From assembly GCA_041309305.1 (NCBI GenBank), contig JBFYZW010000235.1:1-63792 (forward strand): 63,792 nt of DNA, read 5' to 3'. Each line of letters starts with the position of its first letter. Position 1 is the first letter of the stretch. Made by a program: the position numbers and the translations under genes. Under the pieces are notes generated by a model. It was not told where the DNA came from. It saw only the letters and a list, made by a program, of their open reading frames with translations, and did no database searches. The stretch comes from Deltaproteobacteria bacterium. Lineage in GTDB: Bacteria; Myxococcota; XYA12-FULL-58-9. This document shows, one piece after another, positions 8,955 to 44,780 of the stretch.

Positions 8955-9052
8955 CGTGCCTTGATGGGTGCAGTGACGGCGGGGGCAAGCGATGAGCGGC
9001 GAGGTCGGGCGGGGTTCGTCATTGGGGGAGGGGGTTTGTGCCGCTCATGCAC
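8955..9052 (+). repeat. R1 repeat, copy A (3' part only; left part divergent)
   Basis: cgtgccttgatgg..ggggcaagcgatgagcggcgaggtcgggcggggttcgtcattgggggagggggtttgtgccgctcatgcac. It aligns to copies B, C, D and E. Confidence 0.8.
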
Positions 9053-9273
9053 CCGGGCGCGGATAGCGATAGGTGTAGGGCATCCTCAGCCCTCGGGCGC
9101 GCCGACGGCGTCGCGCCGACACCCTGGCGGCTGGCCATCGCCCGCTCTTTGCGGGCCACGACCTTCTTCACGTCCGTCTGCGCGAAGCGCCCATCCGGTC
9201 CGGCGATGTCCTTCAGCAGGTCGGCGGTCACGGAAACGGCTCGAAATAGGTCTGTTTTGCTCAGTCTCGGCAT
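9019..9273 (-). CDS. Small hypothetical protein (84 aa) whose last codons and stop lie inside R1 copy A
   Basis: ATG at 9273 is preceded by GGGAGAG, an SD-like sequence with a 5-6 nt spacer. Third codon positions are strongly G/C. The ORF ends ...CMSGTNPLPQ* at the conserved R1 TGA (9019-9021). No recognisable domain. Confidence 0.35.
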   Translation of the reverse strand: MPRLSKTDLFRAVSVTADLLKDIAGPDGRFAQTDVKKVVARKERAMASRQGVGATPSARPRAEDALHLSLSAPGCMSGTNPLPQ

Positions 9274-9454
9274 CTGAGCTCTCCCGCGCGTCCGGTCATT
9301 ATAGTGATGGTGGTGCAACGCCGTCGCTCTCTGGCGTCGGCGTCTTCATCGGACCTCGGGGGCGGGTGTTGCGCGAAAGGGCGGGAGCAACCCACGCCCA
9401 GGCGGCGAGTCGCGACCGCGCGCCGCGGCTGGCGGCGGCCCGGCCGGCCGGCGT

Positions 9455-9772
9455 ATGGTCCTCGGCATGGAGCCGGTCAATCCGCCAAACGGCGAAGCGC
9501 TGGTGGCCCTGGCGAGCACGCGGATGCCATTTGGCCGCTACGAGGGCACGGCGATCCTGGACCTCCCCGAGCCCTACCTGCTCTGGTTTCAGCACAAGGG
9601 CATGCCAAAGGGGACGTTGGGGCGCCTGATGGCCTTGGCCCTCGAGATCAAGGCGAACGGCCTGGAGGGCCTGGTCGCCGAGGCGTTGCGGCGGCATGGG
9701 ATCGACGTGCGGGCTGCTGCGGGACATCCGCTCCACCCGGCCGCAACCCCGTCGAGGAGGAAGCCCCGGTGA
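9455..9772 (+). CDS. DUF3820-family protein (QSregVF_b-like)
   Basis: MPFGRYEGTAILDLPEPYLLWFQHKGMPKGTLGRLMALALEIKANGL matches the conserved MPFGKYKG..DLPxxYLxWFxxKGFPxGxLGxLL core of DUF3820. An alternative start lies at 9467. Confidence 0.7.
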   Translation: MVLGMEPVNPPNGEALVALASTRMPFGRYEGTAILDLPEPYLLWFQHKGMPKGTLGRLMALALEIKANGLEGLVAEALRRHGIDVRAAAGHPLHPAATPSRRKPR

Positions 9773-10416
9773 CCACGACCTGGACGATGATCGCCGCCGA
9801 GCGGTTGGCGCTGTGTGACACCCTCGACTCACTCACCGAGGCCCAGTGGCAGGCGCCCAGCGCGTTGCGGGGTTGGCCGGTCCGCCACGTCGTCGCCCAC
9901 CTGGTCTGGCCGCTCGAGACCTCGCTGCCGCGCCTGGCGCTGCAGCTCGCGCGGTATGGCTTCAGCGCGCTACGCGCCACCGACGGCATCGCCGACGCCG
10001 ACCGCCGCAGCGGGCCGGAGTTGGCCGCAGCGCTGCGCGCCAATGCCCATCAGCATCGGTTCCGTTTCCCAGGCCGTGGGTTGGAGTCGCCGCTGACCGA
10101 AACAGTCGTTCACGCGCTCGACATCCGCCTGCCCCTCGGTCTCATCTACGCGATCCCTGCGGGACCGGCGCGCATCGTGCTCGACACGCTGGTCGATCCG
10201 CGTGCCAGTCGCGGCTATGCGCCACCGCACCGCTTCGATGGCCTGCGCCTCGAGGCCACCGACCTGGATTGGCGCCACGGGGAGGGCCCGCAGCTCAGCG
10301 GCCCGACCGCCGAGCTGATCATCACGCTCGCCGGTCGCGGCCTGGCGCTGGATCGCCTGACCGGCGACGGCGTGGAGGTGGTGCGCAGCCGCCGCGGCAA
10401 ACGAAAGAATCCCTAG
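9769..10416 (+). CDS. DinB-like / maleylpyruvate isomerase N-terminal domain family protein (TIGR03083-like)
   Basis: GTG at 9769 overlaps the upstream stop (GTGA). GAGGAGG lies 8 nt upstream. AQWQAPSALRGWPVRHVVAHLV matches the family N-terminal motif (W..P....GW.VRDVVAHL). The long N-terminal extension in ORF 9304..10416 was rejected. Confidence 0.6.
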   Translation: MTTTWTMIAAERLALCDTLDSLTEAQWQAPSALRGWPVRHVVAHLVWPLETSLPRLALQLARYGFSALRATDGIADADRRSGPELAAALRANAHQHRFRFPGRGLESPLTETVVHALDIRLPLGLIYAIPAGPARIVLDTLVDPRASRGYAPPHRFDGLRLEATDLDWRHGEGPQLSGPTAELIITLAGRGLALDRLTGDGVEVVRSRRGKRKNP

Positions 10417-10577
10417 CCCGAGGAGAAGGCGGTCGATGAAGCGCGGCCTCTTTCGTGTCTCGAGCATCGCGTCGTGCCTCGGCTGGGCCGCGGTCGGCGG
10501 TACCGCCCGCGGTGTCACCGGTCGCGCCACCTGGAGACAGGTGTGGATGTGATGAGTTGGTTCGTGGAGCCGTGGGC

Positions 10578-10674
10578 CCTAAACGGACGGTCACGATTCC
10601 CGATCACCAAAGAGCGGCCTCGCCCGAGGAAGAAACGCAAACGGGGTTTGCGCGAATCGCGCCCCCCCGTTTAG
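10578..10674 (+). repeat. REP-like intergenic element, copy 1 (extended form), ending in a hairpin
   Basis: ccctaaacggacggtcacgattcccgatcaccaaagagcggcctcgcccgaggaagaaacgcAAACGGGGtttGCGCGaatCGCGCcCCCCCGTTTag. It is nearly identical to 31605..31702. Confidence 0.8.
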
Positions 10675-10684
10675 ACTCGGCGTC

Positions 10685-13600
10685 ATGCGACTATCGCCCG
10701 GCTTCGGTGTCGTCCTCGGCGGGCTGTGTCTCGTCGTCTGGCCCCTGGCCTGCCGCGTGCGCCTCACCGAGGCGCCTGGTCAGGACGTCGCCTGCGTCGT
10801 CAACGCCGACTGTCCAGGCACGCTGCGCTGCCTCGTGGACCTCGGCCGGTGTGCCGAGAGCGGCGCGGTCTGCACCGAGAAACGCGGTGAGCAGCTCGTC
10901 GCCGCGCCGGCCGGCGATGCCTGCCGGCTGGAGGACGGCAGCGAGGGCATCTGTCTGAGCGCACGCTGCACCGCCTCGCGCTGCGGCGACGCGTTCGTCG
11001 ATCTACGCACGGGCGAGGCCTGCGACGACGGCAACACCAACGACAATGACGCGTGCCTCTCCACGTGCACGGTCGCGCGCTGCGGCGACGGCGCCCTTCT
11101 GCTGTTCGGCGCCGAGCCCTCGGCGTACGAGAGCTGCGACGATGGCAACACCAGCGACCATGACGCGTGTCTGTCGACCTGCGTCATCGCGCGCTGTGGT
11201 GATGGGCACGTGCTCGACGACAGCGCTGACCCGACCCTCCTCGAGGAGTGCGACGATCAGAACGATCAGGACGGCGACGACTGCCTCACCAGCTGCATCC
11301 GCAACGTCTGCGGGGATCAGATCGTCAACCCGCTCGCCGAGGCCTGTGATGACGGGAACGACAACCCCAACGACGGCTGCGACGGTTGTGCACGCACGCG
11401 TTGGGCGGCGGCCATCGTCGCCGGCCGGGGTGAGAGCGGCGGCGACGCGCAGCAGCAACCCTTGCGCGCGCCTCGCGGTGTGGCCGTCGACCTCGGTGGT
11501 CGCGTCTTCGTCGCCTCCGGCGACGCACGCATCTTCCGCTTCGACCCACCCACCGCGGCCCTCCCCGGCGGCGCGGCCACGGTGATCGCCGGCACCGGCG
11601 ATCGCGAGCACACTGGAGACGGCGGTCCCGCCTACCGCGCCGGTCTCAACGATATCTGGAACGTCGCGGTCGACTCGCGCGGCGAGCTCTTCGTGACCGA
11701 GCGGGACTTCGATCACCCCGAGCGAGGCGCGGTCCGCCGCATCGACCTCGAAGGGCGGATCACCACCATCCTGGGCGGGGGCAGCGCCCCGCTCACCGAC
11801 GGGGCCCCGGGGACGAGCGTCGCGCTGTACGGGCTGACCGGGATCTGCACCGACAGCCTCGGACGGGTCTACGTCGCCGACCACTCGGCCGGAGGCACCT
11901 GGGGCAACGGTCGGGTGGTGCGCTACAGCCCTGAAACCGGCACGATCGAGGTCCTCGTGGGCGGCGGTACCACCCGCCCGCTGTTCTCGGACAGTCTCCC
12001 CGGAACCGACGTCCAGCTCCCCCTGCCCTACGGCCTCGCCGCCCATGACGACACCCTATACGTGGTCGACGGGAGCACCGATGGCGGGCAGCCCTTGCAT
12101 CGCGGTGCGCTGCTCGCGGTGGACCTCGTCACCCCGGGTTATCCGACGCACGTCGCGGTGGGTGGCACCCTGCACTGGCCGCCGGCGGTCGGGCAGTTGG
12201 CCAACCAGATGATCGTCCGTCAGGCACGCGGCGTCGCAGTGACAGAGGACGGCCGCCTGTGGCTCTCGCTCCAGTACTACTCCGTGAGCCTGCCCGCGGC
12301 GACGGGACAGCTTCTGGTGCGGGTCAACGGCGGCGTGGTCGACTTCGTGGCCGGGGATGATTTCGGCCTCGCCGGCGACGGCCTCGCGGTCACGACCTGG
12401 CGATTCAACTCGCCCGAGCAGCTCGCGCTCGACGCCGGGGGCCACCTCTTGATCGCTGACTCGGGCAACAACCGGGTGCGCGCGATCGACCTCGAGGAGG
12501 AGCTCTCCACCTTCGCCGGCGCGGCCGACAGCATTGTCCTCGCCAGCCCCGCCCTCGCGACCGCGCTGCGCCAACCCTACGTCTACGGCGCGAGCCTCGT
12601 CCGCGCGACGGATCTCGACGGGGATCTGGTCACGCCGGTGGAGAACGGCCTGGTCATCGCCCGGGTGCTGCCCGACGGCACGGCCGTGCGCCTCGCGGGC
12701 AACGGCCAGGTCGGCGACACTGGTGACGGCGGCCCCGCCCTCGATGCGACCTTCTTCGAAGCCCGCGCCGTGCTCGCTGGCGCCGACGGCAGCGTGCTGA
12801 TCGCCGATCCCTGGGCGCACCGGGTTCGCCGGGTGGAAGCGAACGGCTCGATCGGACCGGTCTTCGGCGAGGTCTACGACGGCTCCACGTGCCCGAGCGC
12901 GAGTTGCCCGAGCGGCACGGCGGCGCTGTGCCGGCTGTGCCAACCGGTCGACATGGCCTGGACCGACGACGGAGCGTTGCTGGTCGTCGACCGGGGGGCC
13001 CACTGCGTCTGGCGCGTGGCCGCGGAGGCCGGGCGGCCGGAGCCGAGCAGCGCGGCCGCCGTCGTGGCCGGTCAATGCGGCAGCGATGGCAATGCCGGTG
13101 ACGGCACCGCGGCCACGGCGGCGCTGCTCAACTCCCCCTCGGCGGTGGCGGTCTCGCCAACCGGAGAGGTGTACCTGGTCGATCAGCTGAGCACCCGCCT
13201 GCGCCGCTTCGAGCTCGACGGCACCATCCAGACCTTCGCCAACTACCCGAGTGGGCCCGGAATCGTCGATCTCGCCTTCACCGCCGACGGCAGCCTGGTG
13301 GTCGCCGCCAGCGACGGTCAGCTGCGCAGGTTCACCGCCGAGGGCGGGGTCATCACGGCGGGCCGCGACGAGACGCTGAGCGGGCCGCCGCAAGCCGACG
13401 CCACCGGCGACGGCGGGCCGTTGGAGCTCGCCAGCCTGGGCATCCCCCTCGGGCTACACCTCACGCCGGCCGGCGTCGCGTTCGTCCACGTCGACGACGA
13501 CGGCGAGACCTCGGTGCGGCGCATCTCGGCCGACGGTACGCTGGTGACCAGCGTGCTCGGCGGCATCGACCCACGCGGCGACGGGCCCCTCGGCACGAGC

Positions 13601-14593
13601 CACGTCGGCGAGGCCGTCGCCATCGCCGCCTGGGGGACCGATGCGTGGCTCGTCGCCGACGCCTGGGCTGGCCGTCTGCGCCTGGTGGACGAGCCCGCGG
13701 GGTGGGTGAGCAGCCTGTTCGGCTATCCCACCGGGCGGGGCGTACCCGGCACCGATATCGCCCGACTCGCCGACCGCGCCGACGCCCTCGCTGGCCTGGC
13801 CGTCGACCCTGCGGCGGGCCTGGTCTACCTCGCTGACGCTCAGAGCCACCGCCTGCTCGAGATCGACCTCGCGGCGGTTCCGGCGCGGGTGAGGCTCCTC
13901 GCAGGCGGCAGCGAAGGGCATGAGGACGGCGCGATCGCCGTGGCCGCCTTCCGCAAGCCGGCGGGGCTGGCCTATTCGGTGGCCAACGGAGTGCTACTGG
14001 TCGCCGACGCCGGCAACCACGTGGTCAGAGCGATCGATCTCGCGGCCGACACCGTGGCCACCGTCGCCGGCGCGCCGCGAACTCCGGGCTTCCACGGCGA
14101 TGGAGGTCCCGCGACCGGCGCGCTCTTCGACAGCCCAGGCGGGGTCGCCTTCGGCCCGGCTGGCAGCTGGTACGTGGCCGACACCGGCAACCACCGGGTG
14201 CGACGCATCGACGCCACCGGGACGATCACGACGGTCATCGGCGACGGCGAGCCCGGCGCCGGTGGTGGCGGAGGAGAGGCGCGGCTGTTCCAGATCGACA
14301 CGCCGCGGCAGCTGGCGCTGGACGGCGCCGGCAACCTGTTCGTCGCCGGGCGGCGAGAGTTGAAGGTTGTCTCCGCCGCAGCGGCCGGTGGCGCGGTGGG
14401 CACGGACCTACTGACCACGATCTACGGGCAGGCGCCGAGAACGACCTTCCCGGAGTCGGCGACCCGTTGCCTCGCCGGCGTGACGTTGCCGGCAGATCGA
14501 ACCGCGCCGGCGAACACGACCGCCACGGACGCCGTGCTGTTTAGCGACACCTGCCTCGGCCTGTTGGTGCGCCTGCATCGCGAGCACCTCTGA
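10685..14593 (+). CDS. Secreted protein with four Myxococcus-type Cys-rich repeats followed by multiple NHL-repeat beta-propellers
   Basis: 1302 aa with a signal peptide. Repeats of the type CGDG....CDDGN...DACLSTC occur. Many NHL-type blades are present (SGNNRVRAIDL, AGNHVVRAIDL, TGNHRVRRID, WAHRVRRVE). Confidence 0.8.
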   Translation: MRLSPGFGVVLGGLCLVVWPLACRVRLTEAPGQDVACVVNADCPGTLRCLVDLGRCAESGAVCTEKRGEQLVAAPAGDACRLEDGSEGICLSARCTASRCGDAFVDLRTGEACDDGNTNDNDACLSTCTVARCGDGALLLFGAEPSAYESCDDGNTSDHDACLSTCVIARCGDGHVLDDSADPTLLEECDDQNDQDGDDCLTSCIRNVCGDQIVNPLAEACDDGNDNPNDGCDGCARTRWAAAIVAGRGESGGDAQQQPLRAPRGVAVDLGGRVFVASGDARIFRFDPPTAALPGGAATVIAGTGDREHTGDGGPAYRAGLNDIWNVAVDSRGELFVTERDFDHPERGAVRRIDLEGRITTILGGGSAPLTDGAPGTSVALYGLTGICTDSLGRVYVADHSAGGTWGNGRVVRYSPETGTIEVLVGGGTTRPLFSDSLPGTDVQLPLPYGLAAHDDTLYVVDGSTDGGQPLHRGALLAVDLVTPGYPTHVAVGGTLHWPPAVGQLANQMIVRQARGVAVTEDGRLWLSLQYYSVSLPAATGQLLVRVNGGVVDFVAGDDFGLAGDGLAVTTWRFNSPEQLALDAGGHLLIADSGNNRVRAIDLEEELSTFAGAADSIVLASPALATALRQPYVYGASLVRATDLDGDLVTPVENGLVIARVLPDGTAVRLAGNGQVGDTGDGGPALDATFFEARAVLAGADGSVLIADPWAHRVRRVEANGSIGPVFGEVYDGSTCPSASCPSGTAALCRLCQPVDMAWTDDGALLVVDRGAHCVWRVAAEAGRPEPSSAAAVVAGQCGSDGNAGDGTAATAALLNSPSAVAVSPTGEVYLVDQLSTRLRRFELDGTIQTFANYPSGPGIVDLAFTADGSLVVAASDGQLRRFTAEGGVITAGRDETLSGPPQADATGDGGPLELASLGIPLGLHLTPAGVAFVHVDDDGETSVRRISADGTLVTSVLGGIDPRGDGPLGTSHVGEAVAIAAWGTDAWLVADAWAGRLRLVDEPAGWVSSLFGYPTGRGVPGTDIARLADRADALAGLAVDPAAGLVYLADAQSHRLLEIDLAAVPARVRLLAGGSEGHEDGAIAVAAFRKPAGLAYSVANGVLLVADAGNHVVRAIDLAADTVATVAGAPRTPGFHGDGGPATGALFDSPGGVAFGPAGSWYVADTGNHRVRRIDATGTITTVIGDGEPGAGGGGGEARLFQIDTPRQLALDGAGNLFVAGRRELKVVSAAAAGGAVGTDLLTTIYGQAPRTTFPESATRCLAGVTLPADRTAPANTTATDAVLFSDTCLGLLVRLHREHL

Positions 14594-14701
14594 CCGGAGC
14601 GCGTTGGCACCGGCGCCGGGTCGTTGCAGTCTCCTCAATCCGGAGGTCGAGCGTCAGCTCGTGGCGGTCGGTGTTGGCGAAGGGTTGTTGACCCCTTCTC
14701 C

Positions 14702-15232
14702 TCAGTCGACGACGAGTGCGTCGAAGGCGGAGGCGGCCCGGCCGCGAACCTGCTCGGCGAGCGGCCCGTCGATCCCCTGTGGCGCGAGACGGTCGAGAAG
14801 ATCCCGCTGCAGGTCAACCTCGACGCGGCAGCACGCGCGGTCCTCGGCAACCCACGTCTCCGCGCACGCGGTGAACGCCGCGCTGCCCTCGACCACGGCC
14901 GCCACCTTGCGCATCTCGGCTGCGAGCGTCTCGGTCTCATATCCATCCATGATGGCAGAAACCAACTGGTCGTCGAGGGCGGCAGCCTCGCCCTGGGCGC
15001 GGCTCTTGGCCAGGCTCGCGCGCAGGGTCGGGCTCTTGAGCGCCGGATCAGCGACGCAAGCGACGCCGACGAGCAGCCGCCGGTCATCGCGTCGTTCCAC
15101 GCTCTGCTTGCGGCCCGCCGTCCACGCGGGAGCAGCGGGCGTTGCGTCACCGTGAACCGCCTCGACCGAGGCGCACGCCGAAACGAACGAGAGTACCACA
15201 AACACCCGGCTGATAGTTGAGACCATGTTCAT
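14702..15232 (-). CDS. LPP20-like lipoprotein
   Basis: 176 aa. Lipobox FVSAC. The core LLVGVACVADP...SRAQGEAAALDDQLVSAIMDGYETE aligns by eye with the paralog at 27948..28592. Its ATG overlaps the upstream stop (ATGA at 15229-15232). Confidence 0.6.
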   Translation of the reverse strand: MNMVSTISRVFVVLSFVSACASVEAVHGDATPAAPAWTAGRKQSVERRDDRRLLVGVACVADPALKSPTLRASLAKSRAQGEAAALDDQLVSAIMDGYETETLAAEMRKVAAVVEGSAAFTACAETWVAEDRACCRVEVDLQRDLLDRLAPQGIDGPLAEQVRGRAASAFDALVVD

Positions 15233-16119
15233 CTCCTCAACGACGCGAAGGCGGCGCGTTCATCAGCACGATCTACCCTGCCCTCATTTCCCGACGCAAA
15301 CGCGACGAAGCGCTGCGCCACTGCCCAGGCCTGCCGCGACAGCGCGCCCGGCAGGTGTCTCGTGAACAGCCTCGACATGACCACGCACTCGACGTTCTCG
15401 GCGAGCAGCCGCGCGCGCTCGACCTCGCTCAACGACGGCTCCTCGCTCACGGCTCGCATGTTGCTCTGGAATTCTTCGCCGCTGTAGGTCCAGCTCGCTG
15501 CCTCGTTGGCGATCAGCGTACGAAGCTCCTCCTCGGTACCGACGAATCCGCCGCGTTCGCGGAGTGCCAGGTCGGGTGGCGTGCCATCGCCGAGAAACTG
15601 CGGCAAGGTCGGATCCACGATCAGCTCGTGCCCGGCGGTCTGCACACGGACGGTGACGTGCCCACCGGCGTCGTTGAGCCGGGCCTCGAGGCCGAGCTGT
15701 CGCAGCCGCCCCAACACCAGCCCCGCTGCGACGTCGCAGCTCGCCTGATTGGTGGTGAGCTTCCCGCCAGTGGCGATGCTGACCGCGCGCGAGATCTGCG
15801 GCAGCTCCGCCGCGATCGTGCTCCGCGCCGCGGCCTCGGCTGGCAAGCGTCGACCGATGGCGCCGCCGACCGAAACACCGGCACGCCGGTTGCTCGGCGC
15901 GAGCCCCTGCAGGGGAGGCAGAGTCTGGCCCGGTGCGCCACCAGGCAACGGCCGCGACCGCGAGACGTGCACCTGCGCAACGTCTGCGCGTGGCGCAGGC
16001 TGCGCGATAGAGCGGGTTGCGTGCTGCGGCGACGGGCCCGACGACGGGGGCGTGGCGGATGTGGCGGATGCTGAGTTTGCGATACGCATGACCGAACCAT
16101 GTGCATCGACCGTGCCCAT
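15229..16119 (-). CDS. Hypothetical protein with a disordered Pro/Ser-rich N-terminus and a possible Cys-His-Asp (papain/transglutaminase-like) core
   Basis: 296 aa. It is translationally coupled to the downstream lipoprotein. TTNQASCDVAAGLVLGRL ... GGHVTVRV ... LIVDPTLPQF gives an ordered C, H, D candidate triad. There is no signal peptide and the start is uncertain (alternative M at 16089). Confidence 0.5.
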   Translation of the reverse strand: MGTVDAHGSVMRIANSASATSATPPSSGPSPQHATRSIAQPAPRADVAQVHVSRSRPLPGGAPGQTLPPLQGLAPSNRRAGVSVGGAIGRRLPAEAAARSTIAAELPQISRAVSIATGGKLTTNQASCDVAAGLVLGRLRQLGLEARLNDAGGHVTVRVQTAGHELIVDPTLPQFLGDGTPPDLALRERGGFVGTEEELRTLIANEAASWTYSGEEFQSNMRAVSEEPSLSEVERARLLAENVECVVMSRLFTRHLPGALSRQAWAVAQRFVAFASGNEGRVDRADERAAFASLRR

Positions 16120-16338
16120 CGCGGGTGTGCTCGACTCGGTTGATGCGCGGGCGTTATGCGCCGACCGCGACGCGCACGGCCGAAGGTGTGTCTCACATTG
16201 CTACACGCTCGAGTCGCAATGTGAGACACGAGGCAATCGTCGTTCGTGGTCCAGCGTCCCGTCCTGGCGAACCAATTGGTGGTCGACCTCTTGGCCATCG
16301 TTTGTGCCGGAGATTGCCGCGGTGAGGAGGAGGTTGGT

Positions 16339-16592
16339 TCAACTGTCGTTGCCGTTTGGGGTCGGATAGTCGCCGTTGAGCGAGGCCGAGGCCGAACGAT
16401 TAGAGCCGGCGAAAGTCAGGCAGGCGAAGCTCTGTCCATCCGGCGAGAATCCGTGTTTCGGCCAGAGCAGCCGGTGTTGCCAAGAGGTTCCGGTCGTGCG
16501 TTGACGGTCGTCGCGCTGGAGGGGGCAAGCGATGAGCGGCGAGGTCGGGCGGGGCTCGTCATCGGGGGAGGGGGTTTGTGCCGCCTGTGCAC
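16339..16592 (+). repeat. R1 repeat, copy B (full length)
   Basis: It aligns with 28972..29189 over about 220 nt and with 44626..44780. The minus-strand tail ends at TGA (16339-16341). Confidence 0.85.
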
Positions 16593-16612
16593 GGCGAAGC
16601 GGAGCGCGTCGG

Positions 16613-16948
16613 TCAGTACAAGCGATCGTAGCCGTGGATTGACACCGGCCCGCTGCACATCCTAGGGGCTTTCGTCGGCGGCAACGGCATGTGACCGTCG
16701 TGAAGCACCGAGGTCACGGCAGGCTCTCGGATTTCGAGCTGACGCTGAAAGAAGACGACGTTTCCGGAGCTCTTCTCGAAATTGTAGTCCCAGATGTGGC
16801 CGTCGTTCGGCTTAGGCAAACGCTGGGCATGCTTCTTCGCTTCCGCCGCCGTCGTTCCCGGAAAACGCAGCTCAGTCCAGACGTTGACGTCGACGGACGC
16901 ATCACGCTGCAAAGAAAGCGCCGACCTCGAAGCTGGTGACGTATTCAT
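16613..16948 (-). CDS. Small hypothetical protein (111 aa), lower GC
   Basis: ATG at 16948 has GGAGG 7 nt upstream. A sampled line counts about 52% GC. Sequence: MNTSPASRSALSLQRDASVDVNVWTELRFPGTTAAEAKKHAQRLPKPNDGHIWDYNFEK... No recognised domain. It lies immediately upstream (minus sense) of R1 copy B. Confidence 0.5.
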   Translation of the reverse strand: MNTSPASRSALSLQRDASVDVNVWTELRFPGTTAAEAKKHAQRLPKPNDGHIWDYNFEKSSGNVVFFQRQLEIREPAVTSVLHDGHMPLPPTKAPRMCSGPVSIHGYDRLY

Positions 16949-17148
16949 GCCGCAGCCTCCACTACGATCCTTATCGGCCAGGGGAGAGGCTCGTTGCCGG
17001 TTTCCACAAGGCTCATCCGGCCCGAAAGGCCTCAAGGACTGCAGTCGTCGGCGGGAGAAGAGCCCCCTCGTGCACAAGATGATCGAGTACCACGATGCTG
17101 CGCCGCCAATGCTCGGTGAGGAAACTGTTGGCGACAGTCCTCGGACGG

Positions 17149-17196
17149 ACTGGAGACATCATAGAGGGGTGCCGGTCGGCGAGAAGATCCTGACAG
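17149..17196 (+). repeat. 48-nt repeat identical (1 mismatch) to the sequence upstream of the IS110 fragment at 27673; a solo copy
   Basis: actggagacatcatagaggggtgccggtcGgcgagaagatcctgacag compared with 27673..27720, which has A at the capitalised position. Confidence 0.8.
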
Positions 17197-17202
17197 TGAT
17201 CG

Positions 17203-18222
17203 TCAGCCGAGCTCGCCGCCGTCAGCCTGCGCCCGCGTGCGCCAGGCGGCGGCCAGCTTGTCCAGGCCCTGGGCGATCGTATGCGTGGGCGCGTAGCCGA
17301 GGTCGCGCCGGGCCGCGGTGATGTCGAAGTAGTGGGCGGTCGAGAGCTGCCGGGCCAAGAAGCGGGTCATCCGCGGCTCGTCCTCTCGTCGCGCGAGCGC
17401 GTGGGCGAGCTCGAAGACGGCGCCGGCGGTCCAGGCCAACGCCACCGGCACGCGGCGCTGCACCGGCGGCGCGCCGCAGGCGGCGAGGATACGGTTGATG
17501 AGCTGGCCGATCGGCAATGGCTCGCCCTGGGTGATGAAGTACGGTTTGCCGGCGCAGGCTGCCGTCGGTGACAGCCGGTCGGCGGCCAACAGGTGCGCTC
17601 GCGCGGCGTCTTCGATGAAGACCGAGTCGACCAGCGCCTCACCATCGCCGACCAGCCGCAGTTGTCCGGCGCGCGCCCGGGCGACGAGCTGCGGCACCAG
17701 GTGGGTGTCGCCCGGCCCCCAGATGAGATGGGGGCGCAACGCCACGGTGGCGAGGCGGTCGCTGTTCGCCGCCAGCACCGCCTGCTCCGCCAGCGCCTTC
17801 GAGCGCGGGTAGTGCGCCGCGAACCGCCTCGCGTAGGGCACCGACTCGTCGACGGCATGCAGGCTCCGGCCGCCGTGGACCACCGACGGGCTGCTGCTGA
17901 ACACCACCTTCGGCACGCCGTGCGCACGGCAGGCCTCGAGCACGTTCTGGGTCCCGAGGATGTTGGTGTGCAAGAACCGCGACCAGGGTCCAGCCATCGA
18001 GGCGAGCGCCGCCGTGTGGAACACCACATCGACACCCTGCACCGCCCGACGGACGGCCTCGGCATCACCGATGTCGACGGTCAGCTGCTCGATGCCGAGC
18101 TCGGTGAGCGTGTCGTGCCGGCTGCGGCTGGCGCTGCGCACCGCCCAGCCGGCGACGCGCAGCTGCCGGCAGATCTCCGTGCCCAAAAACCCCCCACCGC
18201 CGGTGACCAGGGCGCTCACCAT
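17203..18222 (-). CDS. oleD: OleD, NAD(P)H-dependent 2-alkyl-3-ketoalkanoate reductase (3beta-HSD/SDR family)
   Basis: 339 aa from the internal ATG at 18222. It has a VTGGGGFLG Rossmann motif and YPRSK (YxxxK). It is the last gene of an A-B-C-D order and overlaps oleC by 7 nt. Confidence 0.8.
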   Translation of the reverse strand: MVSALVTGGGGFLGTEICRQLRVAGWAVRSASRSRHDTLTELGIEQLTVDIGDAEAVRRAVQGVDVVFHTAALASMAGPWSRFLHTNILGTQNVLEACRAHGVPKVVFSSSPSVVHGGRSLHAVDESVPYARRFAAHYPRSKALAEQAVLAANSDRLATVALRPHLIWGPGDTHLVPQLVARARAGQLRLVGDGEALVDSVFIEDAARAHLLAADRLSPTAACAGKPYFITQGEPLPIGQLINRILAACGAPPVQRRVPVALAWTAGAVFELAHALARREDEPRMTRFLARQLSTAHYFDITAARRDLGYAPTHTIAQGLDKLAAAWRTRAQADGGELG

Positions 18223-19871: not shown

Positions 19872-20767
19872 CGCGTCGTTGGTGGCAAGGGGTTGGCGGC
19901 GAGGAAGCGTTCGATCTCGGCGAGGATCTCCTCCGGTGCGTCCTCGAGGACATAGTGCCCGCAGTCGGGGAACTGCCGCACCGTAGCCTCGGGCAGGTGC
20001 TCGCGCCACTTGGCCAGGAAATGCTGGTCGAAGACGAAGTCCTTTTCACCCCAGCAGATGAGCACCGGCGTGGCGCGAAACCGCGACAACCCGGCCTCGA
20101 CCTCGCTCAGCAGCGTCCAGCCGCGGTCGGTCGGCCGGAGCGGGATCTCCTGCACGAACCGTAGCGTGGCGATCCGATTGGCCCAGGAGTCATACGGCGC
20201 CGCGTAGGCGTCGCGGACCGCCTTGGGCATCGGTCGCCGGGTGACCGCCAGGCGCGTTGCGCCGCGGCTGAAGGCGTTGAGGCCGCGCACCAACAGGGCC
20301 CCGAGCGGCGTGCGGGTCAGCGCCAGCTGCCAGGGAAACGGCTTGGCCGCGGGCAACGGGAAGGCTGCCGTATTGAGCAGCACGATCCGCGCGACCGCCT
20401 CCGGGTGGCGGTGAGCCCAGGCCATGCCAATCATGCCGCCCCAATCGTGCACGATGAGGGTGACGTTGTCGCGGATCCCGAGGTGGGCCAGGAGCCGCTC
20501 GAGATCGGCGACGCGGTGCTCGGTCCGATAGTCGTAGGCCGCATCGCCCGGCTTGTCCGACAGGCCACAGCCGATGTGGTCGGGGACGATGCAGCGGTAC
20601 CGGTCGCGCAGCCCCTTGACCAGCTCGCGGTAGTAGAACGACCAGGAGGGGTTGCCGTGCAGGAGCACGAGCACCTCGCCACGACCCTCGTCGAGGTAGT
20701 GGTAGCGCAGGCCGTCGAGGTCCAGGTAGTGCCCCGCGAAGGGGTACAGCTCCTTGGCGATGTGCAC
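19868..20767 (-). CDS. oleB: OleB, alpha/beta-hydrolase (haloalkane dehalogenase-like) beta-lactone decarboxylase
   Basis: 299 aa. It has HGNPSWSFYY and the nucleophile-elbow-like VHDWGG motif, and sits between oleA and oleC. Confidence 0.85.
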   Translation of the reverse strand: MHIAKELYPFAGHYLDLDGLRYHYLDEGRGEVLVLLHGNPSWSFYYRELVKGLRDRYRCIVPDHIGCGLSDKPGDAAYDYRTEHRVADLERLLAHLGIRDNVTLIVHDWGGMIGMAWAHRHPEAVARIVLLNTAAFPLPAAKPFPWQLALTRTPLGALLVRGLNAFSRGATRLAVTRRPMPKAVRDAYAAPYDSWANRIATLRFVQEIPLRPTDRGWTLLSEVEAGLSRFRATPVLICWGEKDFVFDQHFLAKWREHLPEATVRQFPDCGHYVLEDAPEEILAEIERFLAANPLPPTTR

Positions 20768-20772
20768 GACGG

Positions 20773-21789: not shown

Positions 21790-22026
21790 GCGGTTCTCTC
21801 CTGCAAAACGGTGAAGCGGTGGGCGTGGTGTGCCGGCGCCATACCTGCCGGGCGTTCATACTCGACCGCCGGCACCACTCCAAGCACCGAATGGCGATTG
21901 GCTGACCGCCGGTTGATTTTCGATGGCCGCGGGTCGGCGCGGCCGCGGGGTTGGCCGCCCCCCGGTCGTTTCCGCTGTTGCCGGCCGCGTTGGTTTCCAC
22001 TACACCGTGCCACCGTGCTCGAGGCG

Positions 22027-31610: not shown

Positions 31611-31702
31611 ACGGACGGTCACGATTCCCGATCACCAAAGAGCGGCCTCGCCCGAGGAAGAACCGCAAACGGGGCGTGGGCGAATCGCGCACCCCCGTTC
31701 AG
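31605..31702 (+). repeat. REP-like intergenic element, copy 2 (extended form)
   Basis: It begins at the last codons of the upstream gene (ccc taa) and ends in AAACGGGGcgtgGGCGaatCGCGCaCCCCCGTTc. Confidence 0.8.
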
Positions 31703-38736: not shown

Positions 38737-38880
38737 ATGGGCTTCGTCATCGACGCTTGGTTGGCGTTGGTGGTCGCAGTGGCCGGCTGGATGAACAAGG
38801 GGCCATTGGAGATCATCGAGTACCTCCGCGCAGAGAACCGGGTGCTGCGTGAGCAGGTGCGGCGCACCGGGTGGTGGTGG
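38737..38880 (+). pseudogene. N-terminal fragment of an rve/DDE-type transposase
   Basis: WMNKGPLEIIEYLRAENRVLREQV resembles the common N-terminal WLNRxQQxxIEYLxEENRVLxEQL helix of integrase-core transposases. It is truncated after about 45 codons, where a 39-nt R1 piece starts. Confidence 0.4.
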
Positions 38881-38883
38881 CAC

Positions 38884-38922
38884 AGCCGGCGAAGGTCAGG
38901 CCTGGGAAGCTCTGTCCATCCG
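38884..38922 (+). repeat. R1 repeat, copy D, internal 39-nt piece
   Basis: agccggcgaaggtcaggcctgggaagctctgtccatccg matches the DGQSF.GLTFAG part of copies B and C. Confidence 0.7.
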
Positions 38923-38925
38923 TCG

Positions 38926-39291
38926 TTACGGCCGATTCAATCCGGCGAAACCAGGCGGGACGCCTTGCGAATTCCGAGGAGTCCAGTCTCGCGGTGCATA
39001 GAGGCCGCCAACCCAGTAGCTGCCACACTTTCTGGCCGCTTCTTCAAAGGTACCGAATTGGTGGACAGTCCGTCCTCCCCGCTTGTGGTGCCCCGGTTGA
39101 GGAATCACGCTCCATTTGGTTGGGTCAAGACCAAGGTCAGAGGTTGTCGTGTTCAACGGAAAACTCGAGACCCTTCTCTCGAGAGCTGCCCAATCGCTGG
39201 TTCGGCGTTCGATACTGCAAACCAGACCTGGTTTGGCTACCGCGTCCTTTTCGAAGAGATATGCGGTACCGGCAATTCTTTCGAGAGGCAT
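38926..39291 (-). CDS. Small hypothetical protein (121 aa) on a low-GC cassette between the two R1-D pieces
   Basis: ATG at 39291 has AAAGGAGG 7 nt upstream. Sampled lines count about 52-62% GC. Sequence: MPLERIAGTAYLFEKDAVAKPGLVCSIERRTSDWAALERR...GTFEEAARKCGSYWVGGLYAPRDW. No recognised domain. Confidence 0.6.
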   Translation of the reverse strand: MPLERIAGTAYLFEKDAVAKPGLVCSIERRTSDWAALERRVSSFPLNTTTSDLGLDPTKWSVIPQPGHHKRGGRTVHQFGTFEEAARKCGSYWVGGLYAPRDWTPRNSQGVPPGFAGLNRP

Positions 39292-39427
39292 GGTGTGCCT
39301 CCTTTCATCCGCTGTAGACCATCAAATTGTCGACCGTCGTCACCTATGGTTGCGTGCCGATGGCGATTGTTCAATGGGCCGCGGTGTCGTGGCGAGGACG
39401 CTCGCTTTCATTCGGTGATACGCCACG

Positions 39428-39474
39428 AGGGCGGGGTTCGTCATCGGGGGAGGGGTTTTGCTCTCCCTGTGCAC
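39428..39474 (+). repeat. R1 repeat, copy D, 3' piece
   Basis: gagggcggggttcgtcatcgggggaggggttttgctctccctgtgcac. Confidence 0.7.
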
Positions 39475-39693: not shown

Positions 39694-42600
39694 ATGCGTA
39701 ACTGCATCCCTGCCCGCCTGACGTCGTTCTGTCTGCCTTTCCTCTTCTTCCATTGTGGCCCTGCGGATCCGTCGCTGGGGCTGATCGCAACCGCCACCGC
39801 AGAAGCCCTCGGCGTCGAGCACACCGTCTGCCCGGTCGGCTCTCCCCAGGGGCCGTGCGACTTCGCCACGCCCACCGCCTGCGCCATCGGCGCCGGGGTC
39901 ACCAACGGCGATATCTGCCTGGTTCGGGGCGGCACCTACCACGAGCCCATCACCTTCCAGGCAACGCCGTTCATCGGCCGCACCGAGCTCGTCTTCCGCT
40001 GCGCCCCTGGTTTCGCCTGTCTCATCGACGGCCGCGGCCTGCTCGCCAGCGGAGTCGACGGCTATGATCACTGGACCATCGAAGGGTTCGAGATCACCGG
40101 CACCACCGGCGACGCCGTCACCGGTTACCGGGGCGTGCGTGCGGTGCGCGACTGCTACATCCATGACGTGGGCGGCCGCGGCATCGCCAAGCTCACCGGC
40201 ACCAGCACCGCCACTGGCGTCGCCGAGCGCAACCGCATCGAGAGAACCTGGTCGTCGGGCATCCAGTGTCTCGCCCCGCCGTCCGGTCCGGTCGTGATTC
40301 GGAACAACCTGCTCGTCGCCACCGGCCTCAAGGGCGGCAACGCCGTCAACTGCACCTCGGCCAGCGCATCTCTGTCGGTGGTCCACAACACCCTCGACCT
40401 CGCCGACCGCACGCCCCCCTTCGCCGACCCGGCGGCTTACGGCATTCTCAGCGCGAGCGCGCGCGCCAATGTCGTCGTCGGCGGTAACACCTCGATCTCG
40501 GTGAGCGGCGATTATCGCGAGAACCTGGTCTCCGGCTGGGCCGCCGCTGCCTACGCCGGCGCGGGCGGCGACGGCGGGGGCAACACCACTGGTGCTCCCT
40601 CGTTCGTGGACACCGAGGACTACCATCTGCTCGCCAGCTCCCCGGCCGTCGACGCGGCCGTCACCTCGACCGAGACCGAGGACTTCGAGCGCTCGCCGCG
40701 CACGGGTACTCCCGACAAGGGCGCCTTCGAGTACGCCCCGGGCTACGACCCGGAGACGCCGGACTGGCCGATCCGCGAGACCGTCGACGAGCTTTCGCTC
40801 TATGCCTCGCCCGCGCTCACCCTGCTCCCGGGCGTGGGCGGCGGGCCGGCGGTCGCCTACCTCGACTCGAGCGCGAGTCGGCTCGTGTTCGCCCGGCGTC
40901 TGACGAACGGCACCTGGCGCGACGAGGCGGTGGCTGCGCCCGTAGGCACCGTGAGCTTCGCCGCCAACGGTCCCAACATGCGACACGTGGCGCTCGCCAT
41001 AGAGCCCACCACCGGCCTGCCCGCGGTCGCCTGGGTCGACCAGGCGGCCGGTCTCTTGCGGCTCCACTACGCCCGCCGCGTGGGCGAAGGCTGCGGCACG
41101 GGTTGCGCCTCGCCGCAGTGGAGCGGCTGCAACGCCACCCCGTTGAAGACCTTTGCCAACACCGATCGCGTCTCTTTCGACCTGGCCATGAGCCCGCTCA
41201 CCGGCCGGCCCGGCATCGTCCTCTGGCGCCAACGCACCAACGGCTGCGGCACCAACGTCCCTGCTTACCACGTGCTCTACCTGTCGCAGCAGCCGAACGG
41301 CACCTGGACCGAGACCGAGCTCGCCGCGACCTCTCCGGCCTGCACCAACATGATCCCGCCGGCCGTGGCGCTCTCCTTCTCGCCAGAAAACGACGCGGCG
41401 GAGCTCGCCTTCACCCGCACCACCGGCAACGCCAACAACTTCGATCCCCATTACTCCCTCGGCGAGCTCGTCTTCGCCACCAACGCGTCGGGGAGCTTCG
41501 TCACCACGGTGCTCGCGCTCGGCGACGGCAAGACCACCTACGGCGGCACCCGGGCTTACCTGGATCTCGCCCACCGCGCCAACGGCGACCTCGGCATCGC
41601 CTTCCACGGCAAGTTCGGCCCCGGGACCGGCAAGATCGGCGTCGGCTTCATCGAGCGTCTCGGCGGAGTCTGGGCGGCGGACGCCTCCGTGCCGGCCTGG
41701 TCGCTCGCCGGCGCCACCATCCTCACCGTGCACGGCGTCGCGCTCGCCTACGACGCGGCCAACCTGCCGACCCTCGGCTTCGCCTCCGAGTACACCCTGC
41801 GCCTGGCGCGCTTCGACGGCGACCGCTGGGACGTGCGCTACGTCGACGCGCAGCGCGCCAACGGTTTCTGGCCGACCCTGGCCCTCCTGCCCGGCGGCGG
41901 CGTCGTCCTCGCGCACCAGCAGGAGGCGCCGCATCACGACGTCAAGGTCCAGGCGACCCAGGATCCCGGCGGCGCAGATCCGGCCTCGGTCGAGCCCTCG
42001 AGCTGCGATCTCTGCCCCACCGATCCGGCCAAGACCGCACCGGGTGTCTGTGGCTGCGGCACCCCCGACACCGACAGCGACAACGACGGCACCCCCAACT
42101 GCAACGATGGCTGCCCCGGCGACCCCGCCAAAGTCGCGGCAGGGACCTGCGGCTGTGGCATCTCGGATGCGGACAGCGACGGCGACGCGGTCAAAGACTG
42201 CAACGAGGACTGCGACCTCGACCCCGCCAAGACCGATCCGGGTCTCTGCGGCTGCGGCGTCGCCGACACGGACAGCGACAGCGACGGCGCGCCCGACTGC
42301 AACGACGACTGCCCGCTCGACCCGCTCAAGGTCGCGCCCGGCTTGTGCGGCTGTGGCGTGCCCGAGGGGTCGAGCTGCGGCTGCACCGCCGGCTCACCCG
42401 ACGGTGACAGCGACGGCACGCCGGACTGCGCCGACGACTGCCCGGCGCACGCCATCAAGATCCTCCCCGGTATCTGTGGCTGCGCCGTGGCCGACACCGA
42501 CACGGACAACGACAGCACCCCGGACTGCAACGATCTCTGCCCGACCAACAACCCCAAGACCTCGCCCGGCGTCTGCGGCTGCGCCGAGCTCGACTGGGAT

Positions 42601-44463
42601 ACCGACTCCGACGGCACGCCGAACTGCGTCGACGAGTGCCCCAACGACCCGGGCAAGATCGCCTGGGGGATCTGCGGCTGCCAGGTCCCCGAGACCGACA
42701 GCGACGGCGACAGCATGCCGGATTGCCAGGATGGATGTCCGACGGACCCCGCCAAGATCTGGGGGGGCTACTGCGGCTGCGGCGTCTCCGACGTCAACAC
42801 CGATGGCGACCAGGTGCCGGACTGCGCCGATGGCTGCCCAACCGACTACAACAAGGAGACCGCGGGCGAATGCGGCTGCGGCGTCATCGACCTCGACAGC
42901 GACATCGACGGCGTTTCCGATTGCATCGACGGCTGCCCCAGCGACCGCGACAAGACCGCCCCAGGCAATTGCGGCTGCAACCAGGTCGAGCTCGACTCCG
43001 ACGGCGACGGCACCTGCGACGGGGTCGATTTCTGCTTCCTCGATCCGAACAAGACCGACCCGGGCTACTGCGGCTGCCACGTCTCCGACGGCGACACCGA
43101 CGGCGACGGCACCGTCGACTGCGACGACGCCTGCGACCTCGACCCCGGCAAGACCCAGCCGGGGCTGTGCGGCTGCGGGGTTGCCGACACCGACTCCGAC
43201 AACGACGCGTTCCCCGACTGCATGGACGTCTGCCCGACCGACCCGAACAAGGGAGCGAGCGCCGGCACCTGCGGCTGCGGCGTGAGCGAGACCGACACCG
43301 ACGTCGACGGCGTGAAGGACTGCATCGACGGCTGCCCGAACGACTTCACCAAGACCAGCCCCGGCGCCTGCGGCTGCGGCACTCCGGACTTCGATTCGGA
43401 CAACGATGGTCATGCGAACTGCGTCGACGCCTGCCCCAACGACCCGAACAAGTGGGCGGCGGTGGGGCTCTGCGGCTGCGACGTCCCGGACAACGACACG
43501 GACACCGACGGCACGCCCGATTGCCTCGACGGGTGCCCGGGCGATCCCAACAAGGTCGCCATCGGCATCTGCGGCTGCGGCGTCTCGGATGCGGACACGG
43601 ACGGCGACACCGTGCTCGACTGCCTCGAGGAGTGCGACCTCGACCCGGCCAAGAGCGCGGCCGGGGTCTGCGGCTGCGGCGTCCCCGACACCAACAGCGA
43701 CGGCGACGCCGCGCTCGATTGCCTCGAGGAATGCGATGACGATCCGGCGAAGCTCGCGCCGGGCGCGTGCGGCTGCGGCGTGGCCGACACCAACCGCGAC
43801 GGGGACGCGGTCCTCGACTGCTTCGATGGCTGCCCCGACGATTCGAGCAAGTCCTCCCCCGGCACCTGCGGCTGCGGCGAATCGGACTACGACGGCGACG
43901 GCGACCTCGTCCCGGACTGCAACGACGGCTGCATCGGAGACCCGGCCAAGACTGCACCGGGCGCCTGTGGCTGCGGCGTCCCGGACGTGGACGCCAACAG
44001 CAACGGCACGGCGGACTGCCTCGAGACCAACGCGCCGCCGGTCGCCGTGGACGACACGGCCTCGACCGAGGAGGAGACCGCGGTCACCATCCCCGTTCTC
44101 GCCAACGACTCCGACCCGGAGGGTCAGGTGCTGACCCTCATCGCCGTCAGCTCTCCGGCCAACGGCACCGCGGTCATCTCCGAGCCGAGCGTGGTCTATA
44201 CTCCGGCCGCGGGCTTCGTCGGCACCGACAGCTTCACCTACACCCTCCGCGACCCGGGCTCGCTCGAGGACACCGCCACCGTCGTGGTCACCGTGACCGA
44301 GAGCAGCGGGAATACCGAAGACCCGGATGGTCCGCCCCCCGGCGACGCCGACACCGGCGGTGGGCAACCGGCGAGCTGCGGCTGCTCCACGAGCGCGTCG
44401 AGCGCACTCCCCTGGCTGGCGTTGCTGGTCTTCTTCCCGCGGCTGCGCCGCCGCCGCGCCTGA
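39694..44463 (+). CDS. Giant surface protein: N-terminal right-handed beta-helix, a beta-propeller-like region, 20 tandem Cys-containing TSP3-like repeats, a cadherin/VCBS-like domain and a MYXO-CTERM tail
   Basis: 1589 aa with AGGAGAG upstream. PbH1-like turns are present (IEGFEITGTTGDAV, IRNNLLVATG). The repeat region spans 42004-44026. APPVAVDDTASTEEETAVTIPVLANDSDPEGQVLTL is cadherin/VCBS-like. The tail is SCGCSTSASSALPWLALLVFFPRLRRRRA. Confidence 0.85.
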   Translation: MRNCIPARLTSFCLPFLFFHCGPADPSLGLIATATAEALGVEHTVCPVGSPQGPCDFATPTACAIGAGVTNGDICLVRGGTYHEPITFQATPFIGRTELVFRCAPGFACLIDGRGLLASGVDGYDHWTIEGFEITGTTGDAVTGYRGVRAVRDCYIHDVGGRGIAKLTGTSTATGVAERNRIERTWSSGIQCLAPPSGPVVIRNNLLVATGLKGGNAVNCTSASASLSVVHNTLDLADRTPPFADPAAYGILSASARANVVVGGNTSISVSGDYRENLVSGWAAAAYAGAGGDGGGNTTGAPSFVDTEDYHLLASSPAVDAAVTSTETEDFERSPRTGTPDKGAFEYAPGYDPETPDWPIRETVDELSLYASPALTLLPGVGGGPAVAYLDSSASRLVFARRLTNGTWRDEAVAAPVGTVSFAANGPNMRHVALAIEPTTGLPAVAWVDQAAGLLRLHYARRVGEGCGTGCASPQWSGCNATPLKTFANTDRVSFDLAMSPLTGRPGIVLWRQRTNGCGTNVPAYHVLYLSQQPNGTWTETELAATSPACTNMIPPAVALSFSPENDAAELAFTRTTGNANNFDPHYSLGELVFATNASGSFVTTVLALGDGKTTYGGTRAYLDLAHRANGDLGIAFHGKFGPGTGKIGVGFIERLGGVWAADASVPAWSLAGATILTVHGVALAYDAANLPTLGFASEYTLRLARFDGDRWDVRYVDAQRANGFWPTLALLPGGGVVLAHQQEAPHHDVKVQATQDPGGADPASVEPSSCDLCPTDPAKTAPGVCGCGTPDTDSDNDGTPNCNDGCPGDPAKVAAGTCGCGISDADSDGDAVKDCNEDCDLDPAKTDPGLCGCGVADTDSDSDGAPDCNDDCPLDPLKVAPGLCGCGVPEGSSCGCTAGSPDGDSDGTPDCADDCPAHAIKILPGICGCAVADTDTDNDSTPDCNDLCPTNNPKTSPGVCGCAELDWDTDSDGTPNCVDECPNDPGKIAWGICGCQVPETDSDGDSMPDCQDGCPTDPAKIWGGYCGCGVSDVNTDGDQVPDCADGCPTDYNKETAGECGCGVIDLDSDIDGVSDCIDGCPSDRDKTAPGNCGCNQVELDSDGDGTCDGVDFCFLDPNKTDPGYCGCHVSDGDTDGDGTVDCDDACDLDPGKTQPGLCGCGVADTDSDNDAFPDCMDVCPTDPNKGASAGTCGCGVSETDTDVDGVKDCIDGCPNDFTKTSPGACGCGTPDFDSDNDGHANCVDACPNDPNKWAAVGLCGCDVPDNDTDTDGTPDCLDGCPGDPNKVAIGICGCGVSDADTDGDTVLDCLEECDLDPAKSAAGVCGCGVPDTNSDGDAALDCLEECDDDPAKLAPGACGCGVADTNRDGDAVLDCFDGCPDDSSKSSPGTCGCGESDYDGDGDLVPDCNDGCIGDPAKTAPGACGCGVPDVDANSNGTADCLETNAPPVAVDDTASTEEETAVTIPVLANDSDPEGQVLTLIAVSSPANGTAVISEPSVVYTPAAGFVGTDSFTYTLRDPGSLEDTATVVVTVTESSGNTEDPDGPPPGDADTGGGQPASCGCSTSASSALPWLALLVFFPRLRRRRA
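42004..44026 (+). repeat. 20 tandem coding repeats of about 96 nt (D.D.DG..DC.D.CP.DP.K..PG.CGCG)
   Basis: Twenty CGC[GAQNHD] units were counted in the translation. They are Asp-rich calcium-binding TSP type-3-like loops alternating with Cys pairs. Confidence 0.85.
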
Positions 44464-44625
44464 GGCACCTCGGGCGCAGACGCAAACGGGCCAGAGCTCG
44501 ACGGGTGGGTGTATGTAGCACCAGGCGACGGCGCACGCTGCCGCGTGGTCGGGTGATTCGATGTTGGTCTTGGGGGTGGTGCACCCGGCCGCCGAGGCGG
44601 CCGCACCTGTCGTGCTCGCGGTCCT

Positions 44626-44780
44626 CCGGTGAGAATCCGTGGTTCGGCCCAAGCAGCCGGTGTTGCAACCGGGGTTGCCGGTCGTGCGTTGATGGTCGTC
44701 GCGCTGGAGGGGGCAAGCGATGAGCGGCGCGGTCGGGCGGGGTTCGCCATCGGGGGAGGGGGTTTGTGCCGCTCATCTAC
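44626..44780 (+). repeat. R1 repeat, copy E (5' truncated; best-preserved stem GATGAGCGGC / GCCGCTCATC)
   Basis: ccggtgagaatccgtggttcggcccaagcagccggtgttgcaaccggggttgccggtcgtgcgttgatggtcgtcgcgctggagggggcaagcgatgagcggcgcggtcgggcggggttcgccatcgggggagggggtttgtgccgctcatctac. Confidence 0.85.

Follow-up and report, generated by a model that had tools for sequence, protein, structure and literature searches.

The contig JBFYZW010000235.1 of a Deltaproteobacteria bacterium (GTDB phylum Myxococcota, XYA12-FULL-58-9; assembly GCA_041309305.1) carries a family of short dispersed repeats, here termed R1. R1 is a genuine dispersed repeat, restricted to its lineage and of a type without an assigned family. 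A repeat finder and self-BLASTN, run on the window (the contig in its entirety, 63,792 nucleotides, nt), recovered five copies, A to E, of a sequence of ~254 nt, all on the plus strand and 84-97% identical to one another. The preliminary description of this DNA had listed the same five copies in one orientation, with identity estimated by eye at roughly 85-90%. We tentatively regard the copies as relics of a small non-autonomous element, which would have spread by a strand-specific mechanism that produces neither inverted repeats nor target duplications. We assign this reading a rough probability of 0.4.

Copy B (16339-16592, 254 nt) is the sole copy with both ends, TCAACTG on the left and GTGCAC on the right. 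Copy C (28972-29188/9) has the same left end (TCAATTG), carries a 21-nt deletion close to it and lacks the final ~20 nt, its similarity ceasing directly after GGGGGAGGGGG. The 5' part is absent from copy A (8953-9052), of which the final ~100 nt are kept, and from copy E (44621-44780), which ends in TCTAC; copy A starts at about position 155 of the unit and copy E at about position 96. Within copy A, a diverged patch of 13 nt (8968-8980) precedes a stretch (8981-9048) with 95-97% identity to B, C and E. Copy D is split in two. Its left piece (38884-38925) corresponds to 16404-16445 of copy B at 88-92% identity, and its right piece (39429-39474) corresponds to 16547-16592 at 87-94% identity and ends in GTGCAC. 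In place of ~100 nt of the R1 interior, an unrelated low-GC segment of 503 nt (38926-39428) lies between the two pieces. This segment contains a minus-strand open reading frame (ORF) of 121 codons (39291 to 38927), preceded by AGGAGG, whose codon positions show no GC bias.

In the pairwise self-BLASTN comparisons, identity amounted to 90% over 208 nt for B and C, 91% over 153 nt for B and E, and 94% over 143 nt for C and E. Copy A aligned to the others at 84-87.5% over ~100 nt, rising to 94-97% over 54-68 nt in its core, and the pieces of copy D reached 87-94% over 32-46 nt. E-values were highest, at 1e-6, for the short D pieces and went down to 1e-73. Exact direct-repeat matches of ~30-40 nt were present as well, with 33 nt shared by A and B and about 42 nt, counted by eye, by C and E. 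The 71-nt core quoted in the preliminary description differs from copy A at a single position, and 100 shuffles yielded no match.

When regions of 650-1,100 nt surrounding the copies were compared in a sensitive search, they had nothing in common beyond R1 itself, and the ends of R1 are thus discrete. With flanks that are unrelated, segmental duplication of a larger unit was rejected. GTGCAC forms the right end of A, B and D, and TCAAYTG the left end of B and C; the two right termini named before, GTGCAC and TCTAC, were therefore both found, the latter in copy E. The repeat finder returned no inverted repeat pair that involves an R1 end, and inspection of copy B by eye revealed no convincing complementarity between its ends. 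No target-site duplication was detected, as the flanks of the complete copy B, GGAGGTTGGT and GGCGAAGCGG, hold no direct repeat. The right ends are followed by CCGG, GGCG, TCGC or CGGC, with no consistent tetranucleotide; left flanks are available for B and C only, and both precede TCAA. The earlier statement that R1 lacks an inverted partner, a target duplication and a transposase of its own thus stands. All copies sit in short dips of GC content (0.60-0.63, compared to a window mean of 0.69) alongside orphan ORFs. They were described as intergenic, which holds for most of their length; short minus-strand ORFs reach ~17-34 nt into copies A and C.

Outside the window, another contig carries a further, sixth copy. 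An exhaustive phmmer search with the minus-strand frame of copy C against 1.84 billion representative proteins retrieved one related sequence, the 69-amino-acid (aa) protein P0121 from a 7,787-nt NCBI contig; two other matches were long and low-complexity-like. P0121 begins at the ATG of R1 and has a B-type tail (SLNGDYPTRNGNGS*), and judged by its sequence it clearly reads as the predicted translation of a sixth R1 copy. Its back-translation implies a deletion of ~16 nt in the R1 core, which apparently removed one G-tract, and ~12 of 54 residues differ from copy C, including changes from F to G, L to P and P to L. The five copies and the sixth lie in different contexts, and several copies share ends, so that R1 behaves as a discrete unit. 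With one complete copy out of five and the apparent core deletion of the sixth, it looks like unselected DNA. R1 occurs at no fewer than six unrelated sites, and its fixed ends, its lack of a coding frame or RNA structure and its decay by truncation, internal replacement and deletion are the signature of a dispersed repeat that once spread by the unit and has since ceased to be maintained.

Two other assemblies contain parts of the same region. A Logan contig (L002, from SRR28346268) is 100% identical to window positions 8993-10266 and starts inside copy A, directly behind the 33-nt stretch in which A and B match perfectly. Such a break indicates that R1 behaved as a repeat in that de Bruijn assembly, too. 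The NCBI contig JBFYZV010000175.1 (L083; GCA_041309345.1) is 100% identical to 43308-47866 and includes copy E. An exact-pattern scan with the R1 core returned a single match among the GTDB species-representative genomes, in Pleomorphomonas, which fits the pattern only and is not homologous; the same scan gave no match in JGI metagenome contigs and none in viral contigs. A looser two-block pattern yielded 79 loci, of which none was similar to R1 by BLASTN. Likewise, BLASTN of copy B against plasmids and phages gave no match. The best relative of a flanking DUF4139 protein among 5.8 billion proteins is 50% identical and its locus is not syntenic; a syntenic comparison was impossible because the nearest relative of this protein is so distant. 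From these scans, R1 looks like a repeat private to one uncultured Myxococcota lineage.

According to the reading that we prefer, R1, a non-coding interspersed repeat of ~254 bp, would derive from a small non-autonomous element or from one end of some larger element, with the intact parent located outside the window. It would have spread as a discrete unit with the enzyme supplied in trans, for which HUH-type (IS91, IS200/IS605) or IS110-type elements may serve as mechanistic models. The copies would now be decaying by deletion, replacement and point mutation, and their only present-day effect would probably be to provide direct-repeat homology able to delete or duplicate the intervening blocks of 5-16 kb. 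The repeat with its discrete ends, its unrelated flanks, its decay, the lack of a coding or RNA-structure signal and its confinement to this lineage are observations; mobility, enzyme class and recombination consequence are what we infer from the sequence patterns.

R1 bears likeness to several known types of element. Miniature inverted-repeat transposable elements (MITEs) and other non-autonomous derivatives of insertion sequences (IS), such as Correia, RUP and ERIC, are likewise small (~250 bp), non-coding, intergenic and multi-copy with discrete ends, lack a transposase of their own and occur as decaying copies. R1 differs from MITEs in having neither terminal inverted repeats nor a target duplication, in the single orientation of all its copies and in that no parent IS is known. 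A classical MITE derived from a DDE-type element was ruled out because inverted repeats and target duplications are missing and the orientation is uniform. The ends of IS91/ISCR elements and of the palindrome-associated transposable elements (PATEs) of IS200/IS605 resemble R1 in that they also lack inverted repeats and target duplications and insert in a strand-specific manner. In addition, their one-ended products share a right end and vary in their left extent, just as R1 does, with a right end common to four copies. In contrast to these elements, no verified HUH transposase lies near R1 and its copies contain no conserved subterminal hairpins. The IS91-type target GAAC/CAAG occurs beside copy B only, on the minus strand, and copy C has GAGC instead. 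Integron attC sites and Vibrio cholerae repeats (VCRs) share with R1 a common orientation, about 85-95% identity and a position downstream of a small orphan ORF. However, intI is missing, an imperfect palindrome framed by R''/R' sites is not seen across the R1 copies, and the copies are 5-12 kb apart with large opposite-strand genes between them. The R1 family cannot be given a name, since none of the defining features tested (hairpins, target, attC) was clearly present. The preliminary description had been unable to place R1 in any known family, and we concur, having found no Rfam family, attC site, repetitive extragenic palindromic (REP) sequence or recognisable IS end. These comparisons leave strand-specific mechanisms (HUH, IS110), site-specific recombination and serial local duplication as classes of mechanism.

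Several points weigh against a mobile origin. No transposase or parent element was identified for R1, the adjacent transposase fragments are without database support, and neither a subterminal hairpin nor a target sequence is conserved among the R1 copies. Local duplication could also account for five equally oriented copies in a stretch of 36 kb; the chance that 5/5 copies share an orientation is only 1/16.

Coding ancestry offers a different explanation, in which the R1 copies would be pseudogenes left over from a small gene that was duplicated. A minus-strand ORF would then have had its 3' end (...LLWPNHGFSPDGQSFAGLTFAGSN...*) in the left ~120 nt of R1 and its upstream region in the right ~130 nt. 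We consider this rather unlikely, even though the left half of R1 contains hints of such an ancestry in its sequence. The left boundary of R1 in copies B and C coincides with a stop codon of the minus strand, and the 21-nt indel that distinguishes the two preserves the reading frame. The left ~112 nt are weakly three-periodic, with 6/10 B-C substitutions at one position, the third, of the minus-strand codons. This frame reads ...LLWP[KN]HGFSPDGQSFA[CG]LTFAGSN...*, its GC content peaks at the third codon position (GC3, 0.73-0.79), and a gene caller predicted the 69-aa P0121 from the sixth copy. However, this frame lacks a start codon in copy B and is displaced further upstream by a 2-nt indel, while copy C has an in-frame TGA. 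The codon changes between B and C are synonymous in 4/9 cases (~45%) and non-synonymous in 5/9, and P0121 carries many radical replacements. No coding frame was detected in the right ~130 nt by codon-position analysis. Apart from P0121, neither the six concatenated R1 frames, searched against 5.8 billion clustered proteins, nor the minus-strand frame, searched as above, found a parent or homolog. From these patterns we conclude that no R1 reading frame appears to be under purifying selection. With no intact conserved frame and no homologs beyond P0121, any protein-coding family was rejected as an identity for R1. A gene duplicate, moreover, would not yield the same 254-nt boundaries in unrelated contexts. 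The uniform orientation and the small orphan minus-strand ORFs beside or within copies A to D would also suit recombination sites (att, attC or cassette boundaries), with each ORF and the R1 copy downstream of it forming one cassette. These ORFs comprise 84 aa at copy A (9273 to 9019, also called on the Logan contig), 111 aa at copy B (16948 to 16613, a low-GC ORF with GGAGG before it, itself 20 nt upstream of R1-B), an ORF with a signal peptide at copy C (29372 to 29173) and the 121-aa ORF within copy D. Gene-like features accompany those of B, C and D, the ORFs of A and C stop at the same TGA within R1, and copy D resembles a swapped interior. The left end of copy B even fits the attC core pattern, with heptamers of the RYYYAAC and GTTRRRY type (GTTCAAC...GTTGAGC). 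Nevertheless, only 45 nt separate these heptamers in B, compared with the 55-140 nt of an attC palindrome; copy C has them in incomplete form, and A and E not at all. No integrase or recombinase was found in or next to the blocks, and the intervals of 5-12 kb hold large genes on the opposite strand as well as genes of housekeeping type. In DNA of 69% GC, ORFs of such length arise frequently by chance. None of the orphan ORFs has a match in Pfam, NCBIfam, PADLOC or PHROGs, and the 121-aa ORF has no homolog among the 5.8 billion proteins. Taken together, we judge an origin as recombination sites to be improbable.

The best-kept part of R1 could instead be what matters, with the rest of the repeat hitch-hiking. 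The sole stretch present in 5/5 copies, as delimited by the repeat finder, is GGGCGGGRYTCGYCATYGGGGGAGGGG, and it holds the only segment retained in all of them, a G-quadruplex-type motif of the form GGGCGGGG-N9-GGGGGAGGGGG. In copy B this motif lies on the plus strand at 16547-16574, and its counterparts, likewise on the plus strand, lie at 9007-9034, 29161-29188, 39429-39455 and 44735-44762; as a 28-mer it reads GGGCGGGGTTCGTCATCGGGGGAGGGGG. The regular expression GGGCGGGR-N9-GGGGGAGGGG, with at least four tracts of at least three Gs, matched in 5/5 copies. Such motifs are rare in the window, as only 17 four-tract G motifs with loops of up to 12 nt were counted on both strands, 5/17 of them in R1. 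The core might thus be a functional plus-strand G-quadruplex module, kept upstream of plus-strand surface-protein genes, where it would influence transcription or initiate recombination. In line with this, plus-strand genes for secreted or adhesin-like proteins follow copies C, D and E at a distance of 59-265 nt, and the motif varies at five positions, which belong to the 9-nt loop or are surplus Gs at tract edges, never needed Gs. This avoidance of G-tracts by substitutions is barely significant, being drawn from five sequences that are 95% identical. The quadruplex itself is a sequence pattern, the distances to downstream genes vary, copy B has no plus-strand gene downstream and the sixth copy has apparently lost one G-tract. 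A functional module is thus unlikely in our view. It is even harder to believe, and would be a very unlikely outcome, that the invariant 27-nt core GGGCGGGR-N9-GGGGGAGGGG, scattered in a single orientation among genes for giant adhesins and further secreted proteins, forms a quadruplex nucleating strand breaks or transcription-coupled recombination and, together with R1 homology, drives gain, loss and exchange of surface-protein blocks, as a myxobacterial analogue of G-quadruplex-initiated antigenic variation. In Neisseria, the pilE-associated G-quadruplex lies upstream of a variable surface-protein gene. The functional analogy is limited to a G-rich four-tract motif before variable surface-protein genes; R1 differs in lacking a silent-copy donor system and a small RNA, in that its motif lies within a dispersed repeat and in that its quadruplex is a pattern in the sequence. 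The lowest standing goes to a structured small RNA or cis-regulatory leader, which we hold to be extremely unlikely. An intergenic position, a length of ~250 nt, a better-conserved core and an inverted repeat of 9-10 bp (GATGAGCGGC...GCCGCTCATC) would suit such an RNA, but the inverted repeat is intact in A and E only, disrupted in B and absent in C, and most copies are truncated. The Rfam check proposed in the preliminary description came out negative. The covariance models of Rfam, including those for tmRNA and riboswitches, gave no match at gathering thresholds across the whole window, and in E-value mode none for copy B and chance-level eukaryotic or archaeal families only (E >= 3) for copy E. 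RNAalifold on three to four copies, which are near-identical and give it low power, produced no compensatory pair, several broken ones and a positive covariation term. Folding of the R1 core on either strand gave z-scores from +0.1 to -2.2 against shuffled sequences, which is not clearly better.

Further candidates were tried and rejected. A retron msr or group II intron fragment found no Rfam match. The template or variable repeat of a diversity-generating retroelement was dismissed because the B-C differences (C/T, G/A, A/G, A/C, T/G) are not adenine-specific and no reverse transcriptase (RT) was found in the scanned ORFs of the window. As for an array of att sites in tRNA or tmRNA genes, ARAGORN gave only one doubtful tRNA, inside a gene. 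This 94-nt tRNA-Ala(GGC) at 8258-8351 lies within a glycosyltransferase gene (7109-8587, minus strand) and is probably a false positive. A minus-strand sigma-54 promoter, TGGCAAC...TTGCA, was discarded since its spacing, judged by eye, is one base too long. No sigma-70 promoter or intrinsic terminator was predicted within copies A and B when positions 8500-17500 were scanned.

The genes between the copies were identified with Pfam. The A-B interval encodes a QSregVF_b protein, a 1,302-aa NHL/DUF4215 protein and proteins without Pfam identity. The B-C interval encodes a 3-beta-HSD/epimerase, an AMP-binding enzyme, an alpha/beta hydrolase, a KAS-III-like protein, two ArsA-like ATPases, a VWA protein and an ABC-F-like ATPase, and closes with a low-GC stretch of ~1.3 kb that contains a lipoprotein-like ORF. 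The DUF4139 protein, a Big_5 protein and an 815-aa protein without Pfam identity lie in the C-D interval, and a 1,589-aa beta-helix/cadherin-like adhesin in the D-E interval. A plus-strand gene (44839-45165) begins 59 nt downstream of copy E. The preliminary description had the copies flank exactly the accessory blocks of the window. This proved too strong, as the B-C interval consists of ordinary metabolic genes and, by its predicted gene content, is not accessory in character. No integrase, recombinase, transposase or RT was found among the scanned ORFs, and hence the copies are not brackets of recognisable mobile islands. The transposase fragments said to abut three copies (IS91-like at 8787-8890, rve-type at 38737-38862 and IS110-like at 27787-27900) could not be substantiated, as these candidates had no significant match in Pfam, in NCBIfam or in tblastn against 72,556 plasmids. 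The ORF fragment at 8787 to ~8890 may resemble the C-terminus of an IS91 transposase (RLGWRELAKRTFEIDVMPCP), and IGIDADK may be an IS110-like N-terminus; both likenesses are plausible resemblances only.

Additional repeats and structures were observed in the same region. Within the adhesin gene (39694-44463), positions 41943-44060 comprise ~17-20 tandem repeats of 99 nt (33 aa) that are 61-76% identical. The Cys-rich, hydrophobic and Arg-rich tail of the adhesin presumably resembles MYXO-CTERM, and this likeness, along with the names of the protein relatives, points to a Polyangia-like member of the Myxococcota. A near-perfect palindrome of 42 nt (16188-16229; GTGTCTCACATTGC ... GCAATGTGAGACAC) lies 110 nt to the left of copy B, in the gap that separates this copy from the beginning of the minus-strand gene 15229-16119, and occurs nowhere else in the window. 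A 48-nt direct repeat (17149-17196 and 27673-27720, 47/48 identical) brackets the 10.5-kb metabolic block at 17203-27649. About 70 nt after its second unit, a short ORF (27787-27951) begins with MERSIGIDADKESC, an N-terminus that looks IS110-like and for which neither hidden Markov models nor tblastn gave a match. Finally, a second same-orientation intergenic repeat, R2, is present at 10576-10674, 31604-31702 and 53179-53239 with 84-94% identity. A strong hairpin, AAACGGGG-tgt-GCGCGAATCGCGC-ac-CCCCGTTT, closes the R2 unit. R2 stands directly before the plus-strand genes at 10685 and 53263 and directly after a gene ending at 31610, and has a REP-like or terminator-like look.

R1 is most likely mobile or duplicative DNA in a state of decay, and its interest is modest unless an active parent or a function of the core comes to light. 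In practical terms, it fragments short-read assemblies, and its direct repeats may rearrange the region. If the G-quadruplex-type core alone matters, it would offer a testable dispersed signal for recombination or regulation. To our knowledge, no interspersed repeat family has been described in Polyangia-like Myxococcota, and a brief literature search found none. Should R1 truly be active, or have been so recently, without inverted repeats and target duplications, it would constitute an interspersed repeat family for this group, and it could mark the borders of strain-variable surface-protein blocks.

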